A stretch of DNA of 33,928 bases, from assembly GCA_936931335.1 (NCBI GenBank), contig CAKZIH010000168.1, positions 1 through 33,928 on the forward strand, read 5' to 3'. A program made the position numbers and the translations under genes. The notes under the pieces are model-generated. The model did no database searches. It was not told the DNA's origin and worked only from the letters and a program-made list of their open reading frames with translations. The DNA comes from an uncultured Nostocoides sp. (GTDB taxonomy: Bacteria; Actinomycetota; Actinomycetes; Actinomycetales; Dermatophilaceae). How positions within the stretch are numbered: position 1 is the first letter of the stretch; the number at the start of each line of letters is the position of its first letter. Of the stretch, positions 1,150 to 32,494 are shown one piece after another.

Positions 1150-1571
1150 CAGTCGCCGTTGACCAGGTCGACGAAGGCGGCTTCCAAGCGCTCGCTGGCC
1201 CGGACATAAAAACGGGCCAGGATCCAGGCCGCCGGATAGGCGGCCACCCCGAGCAGCACCCAGGGCAGCGGCACCGGGCCCAGGCGCACGGTTCCGGTCT
1301 CGGGGATGAGCAGGAAGAGCAGCGGCACCCCGGCCAGGGTGAGGGCGACCAGCAGCAGCAGGCTCGCGGACAGGCGCAGTTGGGCACGGATCAGTCCGCG
1401 GACATAGACCTCACCCAGGTCGGTCTCGTCGGAGAGTTCTTCGGCCACCGGCCGGGTGGTATGCCGGGCCGCCGAGCGCCGGGAGGCGCTCACCCGCACC
1501 CGTTGTGGGGCCGGCCCGGACGTCGGGCCCGAGGCTGACCCGGGGTGCGGCCCGGCGCTGTCGCTCTGCAT
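1149..1571 (-). CDS. Small membrane protein, DUF485-like partner of ActP-type symporters
   Basis: C-terminal part of ORF 1149..1871 from ATG 1571: ELSDETDLGEVYVRGLIRAQLRLS followed by 2 TM helices. It lies directly upstream of the symporter. Confidence 0.75.
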   Translation of the reverse strand: MQSDSAGPHPGSASGPTSGPAPQRVRVSASRRSAARHTTRPVAEELSDETDLGEVYVRGLIRAQLRLSASLLLLVALTLAGVPLLFLLIPETGTVRLGPVPLPWVLLGVAAYPAAWILARFYVRASERLEAAFVDLVNGD

Positions 1572-27328: not shown

Positions 27329-27405
27329 GCCGCTTTAGCTCAGTCGGCCAGAGCGATTCACTCGTAATGAATAGGTCATCGGTTCGATTCCGATAAGCGG
27401 CTCCA
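27329..27405 (+). tRNA. tRNA-Thr(CGT)
   Basis: Acceptor stem GCCGCTT/AAGCGGC, anticodon arm ATTCA-CTCGTAA-TGAAT, T-loop GGTTCGATTCC and encoded CCA. TATACT -10 at 27302-27307. Confidence 0.97.
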
Positions 27406-27411
27406 GATCAA

Positions 27412-27436
27412 GCCCTCCACTTCGGTGGAGGGCCTT
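27412..27436 (+). terminator. Hairpin/terminator after the tRNA
   Basis: GCCCTCCAC-TTCG-GTGGAGGGC (cUUCGg loop). Confidence 0.75.
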
Positions 27437-27564
27437 CCTGCTGGTGAAGGCCAGCGGGCGCGCCGTGTTCACTCGCTGTTCGGTCGGGTCAATGGGTGCA
27501 CCCCCGGTACGGGGGGCGCACAAGCTCCTAAACGTTGTCAGCTGCTCTGGATAGCTTGGGCACC

Positions 27565-28230
27565 ATGGTCTGGGGGCAGTCGAAGCGGACAGTGAAGAGA
27601 ACGTGTCGTTGGCTGGCACAGCCAGGGGACAGGTTTTACGTAATCTGGTTTGTTCTTCTGCTTCTTGTTGCGCAGTGGGGTGGGCCGCGGATCAGCGTGG
27701 CGGTGATGGTGGCTCCCGCCATCCTTGGGCTGATCGCAATGGGCATCGTGGGCTGGAGGCTGCCGCCGCCTCGTCCGCTTAGCGAGACGAGCGCCTTCGC
27801 CAGACGGATTGGCATGTTCGCCAGAGGGACCTGGCAAGGCGCTCTCTTCGCCTTCGCGGCGGTCCTGGGCGCCTGGGTGGCTATGCACCTTGGGCGCGTG
27901 GAAGCGGGCGATGAACTGATGCGACTCAGTTGGCAGTCGGTATTCCCGGTCGTTCTGGTCGCGACCCTCCTGGTGGGCTTCACGACCATGATGGGTCTGG
28001 CTGTTGACCTTTGGAGGAGCGGCTCCGCACGTCGCTCACAGACCATCTGGTCGTTGACCGCACCGTTGGCTCGCTATCCCATCGCCGGTCGGCTGCGCAA
28101 CTGGATCAATAGTTGCTTGGACTGGTTGACGACTCCCTTGAACTCTTTCTTGGCCGCGTACATGTCCCCGGCGGTGGTCGTTGCGATCTGGACCTATCGA
28201 CCGTCGATCGGACTTGTTGCTTGGGGATGA
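27565..28230 (+). CDS. Hypothetical ~5-TM membrane protein (islet cargo)
   Basis: 221-aa hydrophobic ORF with more A/T-ending codons than the backbone. TAGCTT -10 lies 7 nt before the ATG. Confidence 0.6.
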   Translation: MVWGQSKRTVKRTCRWLAQPGDRFYVIWFVLLLLVAQWGGPRISVAVMVAPAILGLIAMGIVGWRLPPPRPLSETSAFARRIGMFARGTWQGALFAFAAVLGAWVAMHLGRVEAGDELMRLSWQSVFPVVLVATLLVGFTTMMGLAVDLWRSGSARRSQTIWSLTAPLARYPIAGRLRNWINSCLDWLTTPLNSFLAAYMSPAVVVAIWTYRPSIGLVAWG

Positions 28231-28329
28231 CTGATTCGTTGATCCATAGGCCGTGATCGACGGGCTGCCGTGATCGCCGGTCTCGTGTCGAACGGCGACT
28301 CCGTCCGACGGCGGGCGATCGGGCAGACC

Positions 28330-28375
28330 CTGGTAGGGAATAGGAGGTCATCGGTTCGATTCCGGTAAGCGGCTC
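28330..28375 (+). repeat. Degenerate copy of the tRNA-Thr 3' half (attR-like)
   Basis: AGGTCATCGGTTCGATTCCGgTAAGCGGCTC (28345-28375) matches tRNA 27373-27403 at 30/31. 28330-28344 matches 27361-27375 at 12/15, with a 3-nt AGG duplication at the junction. Confidence 0.9.
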
Positions 28376-28461: not shown

Positions 28462-28624
28462 AACGGCTTAGATCACGGGCCGGGGGATCGATCGCCGGTG
28501 CAAACTCGTCGTGCTGGGTCCGATGTGGGGCCGGACGGGTCCCGATGCCGGACGGGGACGGCCGGTACACGTTTACTGCCTATAGCTGGACTTGAGCTGC
28601 GTAACAAGTTATCTTGGAGGCGGG

Positions 28625-28852
28625 TTGAACGATCTCATCATGGCTCATTCCGCCTTGAAGCACGGTTTGAGCGAGGAGCAGATCCGCCACGCCTACCGAA
28701 ACCCGATCCGGGCTTGGGATCTGGGGGACGGGTTCGCGATGCTCGTGGGCGCCACTCCGGCGGCCGTGCTCATCGAAGTTGGTTTCGTTCAGGGCGACAC
28801 CGCGATCGTCATTGTGCATGCGATGCGAGCCCGAGAGAGATTCCTGAGGTGA
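28625..28852 (+). CDS. Putative toxin (BrnT/RelE-fold-like small protein); start TTG 28625 or ATG 28640
   Basis: SALKHGLSEEQIRHAYRNP...MLVG...LIEVG...IVIVHAMRAR; GGAGG upstream. Paired with a small HTH gene. Confidence 0.65.
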   Translation: MNDLIMAHSALKHGLSEEQIRHAYRNPIRAWDLGDGFAMLVGATPAAVLIEVGFVQGDTAIVIVHAMRARERFLR

Positions 28853-28857
28853 GGCTC

Positions 28858-29133
28858 ATGCCACGGTCTGTCGACGACCTCCTCAAGCACGCCGACGAGT
28901 TGGCGGCTCGCTTCGAGGGGTACGAACCCGACCCCGCCGACGAGCTGGATGCCGCGGCGGTGGGGCGCCTGCGGCAAGCCGTCGTCCAGCGCTCCGAAGC
29001 CGAACGCGAGGTCATCGCCGCCGTTCGGGGCGCGAGAGAGGCCGGTCTGTCCTGGGCCGCGATTGGTGGTGTGGTCGGGACCACCGGGGAGGCCGCCCGC
29101 CAGCGCTATACCAGGCCGCCATCCGCCTCCTGA
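28858..29133 (+). CDS. Putative antitoxin with C-terminal HTH
   Basis: 91 aa with an acidic N-terminus and AREAGLSWAAIGGVVGTTGEAARQRY; RBS GAGGTGAGG. Confidence 0.65.
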   Translation: MPRSVDDLLKHADELAARFEGYEPDPADELDAAAVGRLRQAVVQRSEAEREVIAAVRGAREAGLSWAAIGGVVGTTGEAARQRYTRPPSAS

Positions 29134-29141
29134 GAACCCGA

Positions 29142-29169
29142 GGCGCCGGGTGCTCGCATACCCGGCGCC
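29142..29169. terminator. Hairpin between convergent genes
   Basis: GGCGCCGGG-10 nt-CCCGGCGCC. Confidence 0.6.
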
Positions 29170-29195
29170 CCGGTCTGCACTCTCGAGTTGTCGCC

Positions 29196-30281
29196 CTAAG
29201 AGCGGGCCGGCAGCAGCAGCGCGCTGTCACCGAACTCATGCCAGAGATAGCGCTCCGCGACGGCAGCGTCATACGCCTGCGGGGTGAGTTCACCGCCGGC
29301 GACGGCTTCCACGAGCAGCAGGTGGGAGGCCTGCGGATCGTGCCAGCCGGTGATCAGCCCGTCCACGATCGCGGGCGGCTGGCCGGGGGTGACAATCCGT
29401 TCGGTCCAGCCCGAGCGCGCCACGACCACCCCGCCCTCCACGGCGGACTCCACCGCCCGGGTCGCCGTGGTGCCGACTGCGACGATGCGCCCGCCGCCAG
29501 CCCGGACGGCGTTGAGTTGCCGCGCCGCCGCATCGCTCACCCGGAAGCGTTCGGCCTGCGGGCCCTCGCCGGCCTCCTGAGAAGACACCCCGGTATGCAG
29601 GGTTACCGGCACCACGGCCACCCCGCGAGACACCAGCCGGGTGACGATGTCGTGGGTGAATGGCCGTGCCGCAGAGGGCATCTCGGCGCTTCCGGGTTCG
29701 GCCGCGAAGACCGTCTGATAGGCCTCCAGGTCGTATGACCGGTCGAGATAGCCATACGAGATCGGTCGCCCGAGGCGCTGGGCCACCTCGGTGATCGGGC
29801 CGGTCACCTGGGCGCGCCAGAGCCGGTTGCCCTGGCCGGTGGGGGATGAGGTGAACGGGTAGGGCTCGACGAGCCGAAGTCGGACCTCGTCGAATCCGGC
29901 CCGGCCCGCCGGCACGCGAACCGCCTCGCCGACCTCGGAGTCCAGGATCGCCCGGGCAGCGTCCGGGGCGGTACGCAGTTCGATCACCCAGGTGCCATCG
30001 TCCAGTGGCGCCGCCAGGTGGACCACCACCGCCATACCGCCCCGCATTCGGATGCCGTCGAGTTGGCCAGCGACGGTCGCCGAGTTGTTCACCACCACCG
30101 CATCACCGGGCTCCAGGTGCTCGGGCAGATCGCGGAACCGCGCATGGGTGATGCCCTCGGGCCTAGCCACCAGCAAACGCACATCCTCGCGCGCCAACCC
30201 CCGGAACTCCGCGGGCTGCGGCGCGAATTGTGCTGCGGCGGCATCGAATCGGGTTGTCGGCTGCTCCAGCACCAGGCTCAT
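29196..30281 (-). CDS. QueA-like protein (SAM:tRNA ribosyltransferase-isomerase family), divergent
   Basis: VRLLV, LEPGDAVVVNNS, YQTVFA, VAVGTTATRAVES and FGDSALL; ATGA-coupled to the SDR. Confidence 0.85.
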   Translation of the reverse strand: MSLVLEQPTTRFDAAAAQFAPQPAEFRGLAREDVRLLVARPEGITHARFRDLPEHLEPGDAVVVNNSATVAGQLDGIRMRGGMAVVVHLAAPLDDGTWVIELRTAPDAARAILDSEVGEAVRVPAGRAGFDEVRLRLVEPYPFTSSPTGQGNRLWRAQVTGPITEVAQRLGRPISYGYLDRSYDLEAYQTVFAAEPGSAEMPSAARPFTHDIVTRLVSRGVAVVPVTLHTGVSSQEAGEGPQAERFRVSDAAARQLNAVRAGGGRIVAVGTTATRAVESAVEGGVVVARSGWTERIVTPGQPPAIVDGLITGWHDPQASHLLLVEAVAGGELTPQAYDAAVAERYLWHEFGDSALLLPARS

Positions 30282-31033
30282 CGCGTCTCCTCCTCACTCG
30301 TCGCGCCCACGATTTCGGGGGCGCGATAGCGCCCGGACGCGGGCCGCTGCGCGATTAGCGCAAGGAAACCGGGGACGGCGCTCTCCGGCTCTGGCCGGTC
30401 GCCGATGTCCTCACCGGGGAAGGCCGCCTGGTGCATCTCGGTGCGCAGGTCGCCGGGGTCGACGGCATACGCGCGGATGGCGGGGTTCTCCTCACCCAGG
30501 GTCAGGGTGAGGTGGTCGAGAGCGGCCTTGGACGCGCCATACGGGCCCCAGGTGGGGTAGTGCTCCACTCCGGCATCGGACGACACCGAGATGAGGACGC
30601 CACCCGAGCGCTCCAACTGGGGCAGCAGGCTGGCGGACAGGACCAGCGGGGCGATGGCGTTGGTGGTCAGCACCTCGGCGAGTTGCGCCTCGGTGGTCTC
30701 GGCGAGCGGGGCCAGGGATGGGTAGGCGTCCTGTGGCCCGAGGGCGCTGGCGTTGTTGATGAGTAGGTCCAGACGGCCGAGATCGGCCAGCGTGTCCTGA
30801 ATCGCCATGCGGTGCACCGGATCCGTGACATCACCCGGTATGGCGTGTAGTCGTCCCCGCTGCTCCTGCGGCAGCGCCGCGGCGAGTTCGTCTAGGCGGG
30901 AGGTGCGCCGGGCGTCCGTTACGACTGTCCAGCCGTCGGCGAGCAGGGCGTGGACCAGGACGCGGCCGAGGCCGGCGGAGCCGCCGGTGATCAGGGCGAC
31001 GCGGTCGGCAATGGCGGTTGTTGGATCGTTCAT
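30278..31033 (-). CDS. Short-chain dehydrogenase/reductase
   Basis: TGGSAGLG, NNAS and YGASK. Leaderless ATG 31033 lies 6 nt after the -10. Confidence 0.92.
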   Translation of the reverse strand: MNDPTTAIADRVALITGGSAGLGRVLVHALLADGWTVVTDARRTSRLDELAAALPQEQRGRLHAIPGDVTDPVHRMAIQDTLADLGRLDLLINNASALGPQDAYPSLAPLAETTEAQLAEVLTTNAIAPLVLSASLLPQLERSGGVLISVSSDAGVEHYPTWGPYGASKAALDHLTLTLGEENPAIRAYAVDPGDLRTEMHQAAFPGEDIGDRPEPESAVPGFLALIAQRPASGRYRAPEIVGATSEEETR

Positions 31034-31039
31034 GCGGCC

Positions 31040-31070
31040 AGCATTCAAGTTCAAGTAAACTTGAGGTCAA
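31040..31070 (-). promoter_or_regulatory. SoxR-activated promoter with sox box
   Basis: Minus strand TTGACC-19 nt-AATGCT containing CCTCAAGTTTACTTGAAC (31049-31066), versus the sox box CCTCAAGTTAACTTGAGG. The 19-bp spacer is typical of MerR-family promoters. Confidence 0.9.
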
Positions 31071-31146
31071 GCCCCGCAGTGGAGTTCTTGGGATTGGGAC
31101 TGAGCGAGGGTGAATGGAGCGATAGGGGCTGGAGCGATAGGAGGGG

Positions 31147-31207
31147 AGAGGTGGAGGTGAGCCGGTGGTCGTGAAGAGGTGGAGGTGAGCCGGTGGTCGT
31201 GAAGAGG
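31147..31207 (+). repeat. Exact 28-bp tandem duplication covering the soxR RBS and start
   Basis: AGAGGTGGAGGTGAGCCGGTGGTCGTGA at 31147-31174 and 31175-31202, followed by AGAGG. Confidence 0.95.
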
Positions 31208-31684
31208 GCTAGTGACCTCTTGCCGATCTCGGAGGTCGCCGAGCGCAGCGGATTCGCCGCAAGCGCCCTGCGTTTCTATGAGGCGGAGGGGCTGATTGCT
31301 GCGACGCGGACCCCGGGCGGGCGGCGGCAGTACCAACGCGCCGTCTTGCGGCGGCTCGCGTTCATCCGGGCCGCGGCCAATGTCGGTCTGAGCCTGGAGG
31401 AGATCCGCGCCGAACTCGACCGCCTCCCGGGCGGCCGCAATCCCACCAAGGCCGATTGGCAGCGCATTTCCCGGCACTGGGGTAGCCGCCTGGATGAGCA
31501 GATGGCGGCCTTGCGCAAGCTGCGCGACGGGCTGGACTCCTGCATCGGCTGCGGCTGCCTGTCGCTGCAGCGCTGCGGCATCGCCAATCCCGACGACATC
31601 GCCGCGGTCAGCGATGAGGCGCCCGGAGCGGCATACCTGCCCCGGTTGCTGCGGCGCAATCCGCCGCCGCGCACCGGCGCCTGA
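31193..31684 (+). CDS. soxR: Redox-sensitive transcriptional activator SoxR
   Basis: MerR HTH (ISEVAERSGFAASALRFYE) and the [2Fe-2S] motif CIGCGCLSLQRC. Confidence 0.96.
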   Translation: MVVKRASDLLPISEVAERSGFAASALRFYEAEGLIAATRTPGGRRQYQRAVLRRLAFIRAAANVGLSLEEIRAELDRLPGGRNPTKADWQRISRHWGSRLDEQMAALRKLRDGLDSCIGCGCLSLQRCGIANPDDIAAVSDEAPGAAYLPRLLRRNPPPRTGA

Positions 31685-31717: not shown

Positions 31718-32494
31718 TCACTCCTGCCAGTCGATAGGCCCGCGGTGCAACTTGTGCTGGGCGGCCTGGGCCACCGGGCGGATGGTGAGGGAGTCGATAT
31801 TGACGTGTTGGGGCAGGCATACGGCGAACTCCACGCAGGCGGCGACGTCGTCGGCGACCAGGGGCCGGTCCACGCCCTGATAGACCGCGTCGGCCCGGTC
31901 CTGGTCGCCGCCGAAGCGGGTCAGCGAGAAGCCCTCGGTGTGTACCATGCCCGGACGGATGTCGATGACCCGGATGTGGGTGCCGGCCAGTTCCAGACGC
32001 AGGGTCTCGGAAAAAACGGAGGTGCCGTGCTTGGCCACTGCATACCCGGCGCCGCCCTCGTAGACGATCTGCGCGGCGGTCGATGACATGTCGACGATGG
32101 TGGCCCTCGGGGAGGTGCGCAGCAGGGGAAGCGCGGCCCGGGTGACATGCAGGCTGCCCATGACATTGCTCTCGAACATCGTGCGCCACTGCTCGGGGTC
32201 GGTATCCGCGATGGGCGCCATGCCCAGCGCACCGCCCGCATTGTTGACCAAGACGTCAAGCCGCTCGAGCCCGCCGATGACCTGTGCCACGGCGGCGGGA
32301 TCGGTGACGTCCATGACGGCAATGCGCGCGGCGGGACCGAGTTTCGCGGCCGTCTGCTCCAGCGGTTCCGGCCGCCGGCCGGTCAGCAGGACGGTAAAGC
32401 CTCGGTCGACCAGGCGGTGGGCGATCGCGGCACCGATCCCGGTCCCTCCGCCGGTGATGAGAGCGAGTGGGGCGTCGGCGGCGGGTTGCGGCAT
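31718..32494 (-). CDS. SDR oxidoreductase (YdfG-like)
   Basis: TGGGTGIG, NNAG, YAVAK and PQHVNI. TACCCT -10 lies 6 nt before the ATG. Confidence 0.92.
   Translation of the reverse strand: MPQPAADAPLALITGGGTGIGAAIAHRLVDRGFTVLLTGRRPEPLEQTAAKLGPAARIAVMDVTDPAAVAQVIGGLERLDVLVNNAGGALGMAPIADTDPEQWRTMFESNVMGSLHVTRAALPLLRTSPRATIVDMSSTAAQIVYEGGAGYAVAKHGTSVFSETLRLELAGTHIRVIDIRPGMVHTEGFSLTRFGGDQDRADAVYQGVDRPLVADDVAACVEFAVCLPQHVNIDSLTIRPVAQAAQHKLHRGPIDWQE

Follow-up and report, generated by a model that had tools for sequence, protein, structure and literature searches.

Does a gene named for tRNA queuosine modification still serve that pathway when it lies in an operon facing a redox sensor? The locus that raises this question lies in a stretch of 33,928 nucleotides (hereafter the window) that makes up positions 1 to 33,928 of contig CAKZIH010000168.1 in assembly GCA_936931335.1, from an uncultured Nostocoides sp. 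At window positions 29196–31684 it carries a SoxR module made up of soxR, a divergent promoter with a sox box, a gene for a short-chain dehydrogenase/reductase (SDR) and a gene of the QueA family. The two-gene SDR and QueA-like operon plus soxR is a self-contained three-gene module. Judged by its sequence, the QueA-like protein is not a canonical QueA but belongs to a separate, widespread actinobacterial orthologous group.

The QueA-like protein stands apart from canonical QueA

The protein carries the QueA domain of Pfam over its whole length (PF02547, 236.8 bits, model positions 6–322 of 322) and its alignment with the solved QueA proteins 1yy3, 1wdi and 1vky (E 6e-38 to 3e-34) runs from end to end. 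An ordinary, if divergent, QueA that converts preQ1-tRNA into epoxyqueuosine-tRNA would account for the full-length domain and for the match to a solved QueA at E 6e-38, and it would agree with the public records, which name the protein S-adenosylmethionine:tRNA ribosyltransferase-isomerase. The scores under the QueA equivalog models, however, lie far below the cut-offs: about half the required value for NF001140 (173.2 against 324) and TIGR00113 (134.8 against 267.45), and 90.6 against 588 for NF002398. The protein also falls into a clade of its own, in line with a preliminary description of the window that had called it a divergent QueA paralogue.

The same description had listed five departures from canonical motifs, and alignment with 1yy3, 1wdi and 1vky proved all of them real. 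GEMPLPPYI of the solved proteins is replaced by GRPISYGYL, GSAAAPTAGLHFT by GSAEMPSAARPFT, LHVGLGTF by LHTGVSS, TNFHLP by TGWHDP and YRFFSFGD by YLWHEFGD, while E.YQTV, GS, VGTT..R..E, GWT and FGD are retained. Across the orthologous group the core motifs in common with QueA are E.YQTV, GS, VGTT..R..E, T..H and FGD, with altered residues in between. Each of the canonical motifs PLPPYI, AAPTAGLHFT, LHVG.GTF, TNFHLP and YRF.S.GD thus has a clade-specific counterpart (GRP..Y.Y, SAEM.SA.RP, LH.G.SS, TGWH.P.ASH and Y.WHEFGD), and because alignments of 20 and 29 orthologues, 47–72% identical to the window protein, show these counterparts to be invariant or almost invariant, we do not regard them as drift. 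Their invariance argues for an active enzyme. A catalytically dead relic of QueA that now serves the SDR as a binding or regulatory subunit would explain why several canonical invariant residues have been replaced, but in at least 29 diverse orthologues the replacements are themselves polar and do not vary, and the protein is full length. A relative of the family is, moreover, encoded in at least 558 of the stretches among the 600 listed from a species-genome collection as matching the clade-specific peptides, and we consider a dead relic highly improbable.

Comparison of 50 paralogues with 17 canonical actinobacterial QueA sequences revealed 34 positions that are identical and conserved in both groups, including those of E.YQTV, VGTT..R..E and FGD. 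Another 13 positions are conserved within each group yet differ between the two: T>S67, V>T69, P>Y176, A>E200, A>M201, T>S203, H>P207, T>S234, H>E239, N>G312, S>A318, F>W347 and S>E349. Conserved histidines disappear through these switches (H>P207, H>E239), and acidic residues are acquired (E200, E239, E349). In the linear sequence the switched positions adjoin motifs held in common with QueA, and we infer that they reflect a remodelled active site. The beta-barrel insert domain is kept, with H88, E101 and R103 invariant and D94, D95 and W98 nearly invariant.

A QueA-family tree had been suggested as a check on the assignment. In the maximum-likelihood tree of 67 rows, the 50 paralogues, the window protein's own group, are separated from the 17 canonical sequences (all actinobacterial) with a Shimodaira–Hasegawa-like approximate likelihood ratio test (SH-aLRT) value of 100, and the branch between the groups measures 0.85+0.85 changes per column; three rows (L003, L032, L034) had been dropped because of a stop or short coverage. 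Branching inside the paralogue clade does not track taxonomy, which fits a patchy distribution of the paralogue. One genome of the order (G087, loci L018/L020) has its QueA-like gene in two pieces (residues 7–127 and 136–359), probably a frameshifted copy.

The paralogue is mostly found without the queuosine pathway

The source genome (3.2 Mb in 408 contigs, 90.58% complete) has a single PF02547 match, which is the QueA-like gene of the window, and no match to TGT, QueC or QueF. The earlier observation that the window holds no tgt or other que genes therefore extends to this genome as searched. A search of 150 other genomes of the same order with the window protein gave 17 matches, and after removal of a spurious one (G055, 19.6 bits) 16 holders were left, none of them among the seven genomes of the same family in this sample. 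Only one holder (G113) has TGT; the remaining 15 of 16 are without it. Of the 150 genomes, 46 have TGT over the cut-off and no credible QueA-family match to the window-protein query. TGT without the QueA family is the pattern expected of direct queuine salvage.

We extended the comparison to 400 other genomes of the phylum, of which 270 have a PF02547 match and 224 a TGT match. The PF02547 scores are bimodal across this sample. Genomes whose sole match is of the weaker type (best E 1e-30 to 1e-95) were listed by hand, giving a paralogue-only set of 74; G381 and G412 were left out as too weak, and G365 and G538 because their families otherwise have canonical matches. TGT is missing from 67 of these 74 genomes, or from 62 of 69 when the unpublished genomes G167, G268, G321, G384 and G413 are set aside. 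For 10 of the 74, direct searches confirmed assignment to the paralogue, with proteins 46–56% identical to the window protein in every case.

Genomes with two PF02547 hits separate the two types further. All five that were tested carry a canonical queA, 35–37% identical to the window protein, as well as the paralogue (42–50% identical) at a different place in the genome, and in the four for which the position of tgt was listed the canonical queA directly adjoins it. Such coexistence implies that the paralogue is a separate orthologous group with a function of its own. The same coexistence counts against an ordinary QueA, as do the lack of TGT, QueC and QueF matches in the source genome and the absence of TGT from 67/74 and 15/16 holders, and we give that explanation almost no weight. 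The QueA-like enzyme very probably has no role in queuosine synthesis. Named holders of the family include Nocardioides, Flexivirga, Terrabacter, Kribbella, Amycolatopsis, Millisia, Pseudofrankia and metagenome-assembled genomes labelled Mycobacterium.

An SDR is the obligatory partner of the QueA-like gene

Co-occurrence with tgt had been proposed as a yardstick against co-occurrence with the SDR, and the outcome is clear: holders mostly lack tgt, as counted above, while an SDR gene lies directly upstream of the QueA-like gene at all 111 loci examined. These comprise 16/16 loci from the order sample, 80/80 from the species-genome collection, 10/10 from the phylum sample and 5/5 from the two-hit genomes, four sets that may share species. 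The SDR is the obligatory partner of the QueA-like gene, and tgt was never the partner at the loci examined. A 4-nt stop-start overlap, (A/G)TGA, joins the two genes at 65 of 78 loci, and the gap is within 20 nt at 75 of 78. In the window the shared ATGA lies at 30278–30281 and comprises the SDR stop and the ATG of the QueA-like gene, so that the coupling reported earlier is correct. Clustering of all open reading frames (ORFs) in 80 loci of 10 kb gave no other recurrent neighbour besides soxR.

The SDR of the window scores 133.5 bits against PF00106. Across 29 orthologues T16, G17, G21, G23, S152, Y165 and K169 are invariant and N125 nearly so, which conserves the TGxxxGxG dinucleotide-binding motif and the positions that we take, by the usual rules for SDRs, to be the N-S-Y-K tetrad. 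Comparison with the PDB returned generic relatives only, the best being 3m1a (93.6 bits), with sepiapterin reductases at about 57 bits. A search of longer proteins found single polypeptides that join SDR and QueA-like domains, including one clean form of 814 aa that has a receiver domain as well.

In one family of the phylum, the SDR bears a C-terminal glyoxalase/VOC domain (PF00903; L142 266–1417, L144 2705–3993), and at one locus of this family an extra stand-alone VOC gene is placed between the SDR and QueA-like genes. These VOC domains have weak matches only in the PDB.

A SoxR-type operator precedes the operon

The sensor encoded beside the operon scores 174.6 bits under TIGR01950 (cut-off 116.9), its translation has the cluster-binding cysteine motif (CX2CXCX5C) as CIGCGCLSLQRC, and it is the single SoxR over the family cut-off in the source genome. 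A perfect 28-nt tandem duplication (31147–31202) spans the predicted GTG start of soxR, which makes its start codon uncertain.

Read on the minus strand, the promoter runs TTGACC (31070–31065), 19 nt, AATGCT (31045–31040), 6 nt, ATG (31033). The short distance from the –10 element to the ATG fits a leaderless mRNA for the SDR, and the arrangement as a whole fits predicted control of that mRNA by SoxR. The TTG at 31054, given as the SDR start in the ORF list, lies inside the operator and is not plausible as a start. The sox box was scored against what we take to be the soxS operator consensus of Escherichia coli, from which it differs at 3 of 18 positions; no other site in the window matches with up to three mismatches, and none of 100 shuffles gave a match. 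The preliminary description had reported a near-consensus box (15/18) in a promoter with a 19-bp spacer, divergent from soxR, and all of this is as described. With an extended sox pattern, the box of the window is the only site without mismatch in the source genome. Because the genome has one SoxR and one perfect box, the SDR and QueA-like operon looks like the principal, perhaps the only, SoxR target there.

Elsewhere in the source genome (contig C408, locus L153, about 1500–1525, minus strand) a second MerR-type promoter, TTGA followed by the palindrome CCTCAACTGCGCTTGAGG, lies upstream of a gene of the ornithine cyclodeaminase/mu-crystallin family (PF02423, 101 bits). The core of CCTCAACTGCGCTTGAGG resembles the palindromes, not of SoxR type, found ahead of some SDR and QueA-like operons (see below).

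The operator recurs at other loci. In the order sample all 16 have TTGAC followed by a sox-box-like palindrome, and most have an ATG 6–7 nt past the predicted –10 element. In the species-genome collection, 77 of 80 loci were usable because the SDR 5′ end and upstream DNA were available. Requiring a strict palindrome, with at least 7 of 9 pairs, recovered 31 of the 77 loci, which is an undercount, and a core-motif count with a background control was used instead: TTGA-N4-AAGTnnACTT with at most one mismatch, from –200 to +30 of the SDR start. By this measure 60 of 77 loci carry the operator, against no match in the other 1.54 Mb of these loci with both strands counted. It is present at 44 of 45 loci with a divergent adjacent soxR and at 16 of 32 without one; SoxR is encoded elsewhere in two genomes that have the box but no adjacent soxR. 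An ATG lies 6–7 nt past the –10 element at 41 of the 60 operator-bearing loci, which supports a conserved leaderless start. Predicted SoxR control of the SDR and QueA-like pair is conserved, though not universal.

At L058, L067, L073, L091, L099, L103, L112, L094, L107, L108 and L127 other palindromes (e.g. CCTCAACCTTGGTTGAGG, CCTCTAGCTAACTAGAGG) are found upstream of the SDR gene, in the same layout of TTGA and a 19-bp spacer and with no adjacent soxR. This suggests that these operons may answer to a different, unlinked regulator of the MerR family; a regulator gene was looked for beside these loci and none was found.

What the module may do

The explanation that we find best for the module runs as follows. 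SoxR would bind the sox box within the over-long 19-bp spacer, and redox-cycling compounds would oxidize its [2Fe-2S] cluster and thereby activate a leaderless, bicistronic mRNA for the SDR, probably NADPH-dependent, and the translationally coupled QueA-family enzyme. The latter would still use S-adenosylmethionine (SAM), releasing adenine and methionine and transferring or rearranging the ribosyl carbon skeleton; its acceptor would not be preQ1-tRNA and would most likely be a small molecule. The SDR would carry out the adjoining reduction or oxidation. Together they may modify or neutralize a redox-active compound, or make a protective metabolite, under the stress that SoxR senses. Taken as a whole, a SoxR-induced pair of an SDR and a SAM-using QueA-like enzyme with an acceptor other than preQ1-tRNA has, in our judgement, an even chance of being correct; the chemistry proposed for the QueA-like enzyme is somewhat more doubtful than that.

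Continued use of SAM is proposed because whole motifs are common to the paralogue and QueA, for which SAM would be the common co-substrate. An alternative is that SAM is no longer the ribosyl donor, that another ribosyl or nucleoside compound is bound or isomerized, and that the SDR reduces the opened sugar. The pair would then serve salvage or repair, with a SAM by-product or a damaged nucleoside as a possible substrate. The loss of three canonical histidines and the new acidic and histidine residues beside the shared motifs are consistent with this; SDRs of this general type are also generally held to reduce carbonyls such as opened sugars and dicarbonyls, and VOC domains are associated with the pair. 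Yet 34 positions, whole motifs included, are identical with canonical QueA, which a shared co-substrate explains more easily, and no recurrent salvage genes lie nearby. We think such a change of donor unlikely, if worth keeping in mind.

What favours a small-molecule acceptor is that the SDR is obligatory, that VOC domains are associated with the pair and that the known SoxR targets are of a kind that fits; the one lineage with both an SDR-VOC fusion and an inserted VOC gene is a hint in the same direction. The enzyme might instead act on a different base in nucleic acid, such as one with an amine group in tRNA, rRNA or DNA, and would then make a stress-induced modification whose added ring the SDR tailors. 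The beta-barrel insert is kept with invariant residues of its own (H88, E101, R103), the isoelectric point (pI) resembles that of canonical QueA, and a tRNA base is the only known substrate of the family in the relevant passages of PMC10491745. The source genome, on the other hand, is without a transglycosylase able to install an aminomethyl-deazapurine, and the obligatory SDR, fused to a VOC domain in some lineages, brings in two typical small-molecule enzymes. Targets of SoxR outside the enterics are likewise, as far as we are aware, small-molecule redox enzymes and transporters. In our estimate a nucleic-acid substrate is improbable, and the SAM-dependent modification of a small molecule is preferred.

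Several observations weigh against the preferred explanation. The disappearance of canonical histidines (H>P207, H>E239 and the one at position 242 of the window protein) could mean that the chemistry has changed, and by predicted pI and net charge the paralogue cannot be told from the canonical enzymes that bind tRNA. No substrate-bound structure of QueA is recorded in the passages of PMC10491745 that deal with it, and for this reason the division into shared residues that bind SAM and switched residues that bind the acceptor is only a guess. A TGT match is nonetheless present in seven genomes of the paralogue-only set of 74. The fusions of SDR and QueA-like domains all form singleton clusters and may be assembly frameshifts, as some of them appear to be. 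As for regulation, 17 of the 77 loci are without the SoxR-type core, some bearing other palindromes, and a Streptomyces-like locus has a Shine-Dalgarno-like GGAGG leader and no sox box; conservation of the box, which the preliminary description had proposed as a check, holds for the 60 loci with the core but not for these. RNA-seq of the SoxR regulon of Streptomyces coelicolor gave six targets, and SCO1804, a gene annotated as QueA, is not named among them in the parts of PMC4146615 concerned with it.

At its broadest, the proposal is that the ribose-derived carbocycle of SAM would be attached to, or cyclized onto, a redox-active xenobiotic or an endogenous amine, with the SDR finishing the product. 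The QueA-like enzyme would then be the first SAM ribosyltransferase-isomerase to act on a small molecule, in a new pathway of detoxification or protective-metabolite synthesis; this stronger claim we offer tentatively and rate as rather unlikely.

Layout of the locus and its surroundings

The features of the locus are collected in Table 1. The hairpin separates the 3′ end of the QueA-like gene from a convergent ORF (28859–29133) and is likely the end of the operon; a terminator scan did not call it, since it has no T-run.

Table 1. Features of the locus in window coordinates.
Feature	Position	Strand	Description
QueA-family paralogue	29196–30281	–	361 aa; full Queuosine_synth domain, clade-specific invariant motifs
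Classical SDR	30278–31033	–	251 aa from ATG at 31033; stop overlaps QueA-like start
MerR/SoxR-type promoter	31040–31070	–	–35 TTGACC, 19-nt spacer with sox box, –10 AATGCT
Sox box	31049–31066		18-bp imperfect palindrome; 15/18 positions agree with soxS operator consensus
soxR	31193–31684	+	[2Fe-2S] MerR-family redox sensor; divergent from SDR/QueA-like operon
Hairpin	29138–29173		GC-rich, 14-bp stem (1 mismatch), 8-nt loop; read by eye

Beyond soxR, and convergent with it, a second SDR (31718–32494, minus strand) is YdfG-like (NF007829, 186 bits, below the cut-off); in other genomes the cassette does not have it as a conserved neighbour. On the other side of the operon lies a tRNA-Thr(CGT) gene (27329–27405) whose last 31 nt are repeated with 30/31 identity at 28345–28375. 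The roughly 940 nt between the tRNA gene and the repeat have a GC content of about 0.62 against 0.70 and contain an ORF of 231 aa without a Pfam match, and the whole (27329–28375) resembles what is left of an element once inserted at the tRNA. The QueA-like operon is not part of this putative element. Two small adjacent ORFs of 86 and 91 aa (28592–29133, plus strand) separate the tRNA repeat from the operon; both are without a Pfam match, and a toxin-antitoxin-like pair is our guess.

Relation to known systems and significance

With QueA itself (1yy3, 1vky, 1wdi; TIGR00113, NF001140) the paralogue shares the domain and the identical positions given above, and it differs from it in the equivalog scores, the 13 switched positions and the usual absence of tgt and preQ1 genes. 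The SoxR regulons of S. coelicolor (ecaA-D, SCO2478, SCO0320ext) and Pseudomonas aeruginosa provide the comparison outside the enterics. A SoxR with the cysteine motif, an 18-bp sox box, a promoter with a 19-bp spacer and a redox-type enzyme as target are common to these systems and the window, as far as the relevant parts of PMC4146615 describe them. Unlike the S. coelicolor regulon, for which those parts report no QueA-family gene, the target operon of the window includes one.

SCO1804 is annotated as QueA in a table of tRNA-modification genes (PMC4932002, relevant portion). In one family of the phylum sample (f25), which is presumably Streptomyces, none of the 10 sampled genomes has TGT and 8 have a paralogue-type match; the one Streptomyces-like paralogue tested shares 55% identity with the window protein and is preceded by an SDR gene. 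SCO1804 presumably belongs to the paralogue clade as well. For ecaC (SCO1178), a role as the SDR partner in a pair of this kind was considered and dropped, its neighbour SCO1177 being a GntR regulator.

The rifampicin ADP-ribosyltransferase Arr offers a possible working analogy in which a stress-induced enzyme moves a ribose-derived group from a common cofactor onto a toxic small molecule. In the case proposed here the donor would be SAM, not NAD, and no relationship in sequence or fold is expected.

Judging from titles and matched passages of the literature, supplements apart, the paralogue, its pairing with an SDR and the link to SoxR appear not to have been described. The supplement of Dietrich et al. 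2008 (Science 321:1203) reportedly gives sox-box-predicted genes across bacteria and may include the gene pair. A 2023 review of SAM chemistry (PMC10491745) discusses ribosyl transfer by QueA, in the passages on that enzyme, only for queuosine and treats the mode of substrate binding as open. What appears new here is a QueA-family enzyme with a probably different substrate, together with a new type of predicted SoxR target.

A second widespread group that does not act on preQ1-tRNA would mean a new reaction to discover, and the paralogue would be a natural comparison for working out the active site of QueA. Recognizing the group would also correct a tRNA-modification annotation that has been propagated through very many actinobacterial genomes, and it would add a new kind of target to SoxR regulons. 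If the acceptor is indeed a small molecule, the pathway would be widespread in Actinomycetota, including Streptomyces-like and Mycobacterium-labelled genomes. As the operon looks like the principal target of SoxR in its genome, identifying its substrate may reveal the purpose that SoxR serves in bacteria of this kind.

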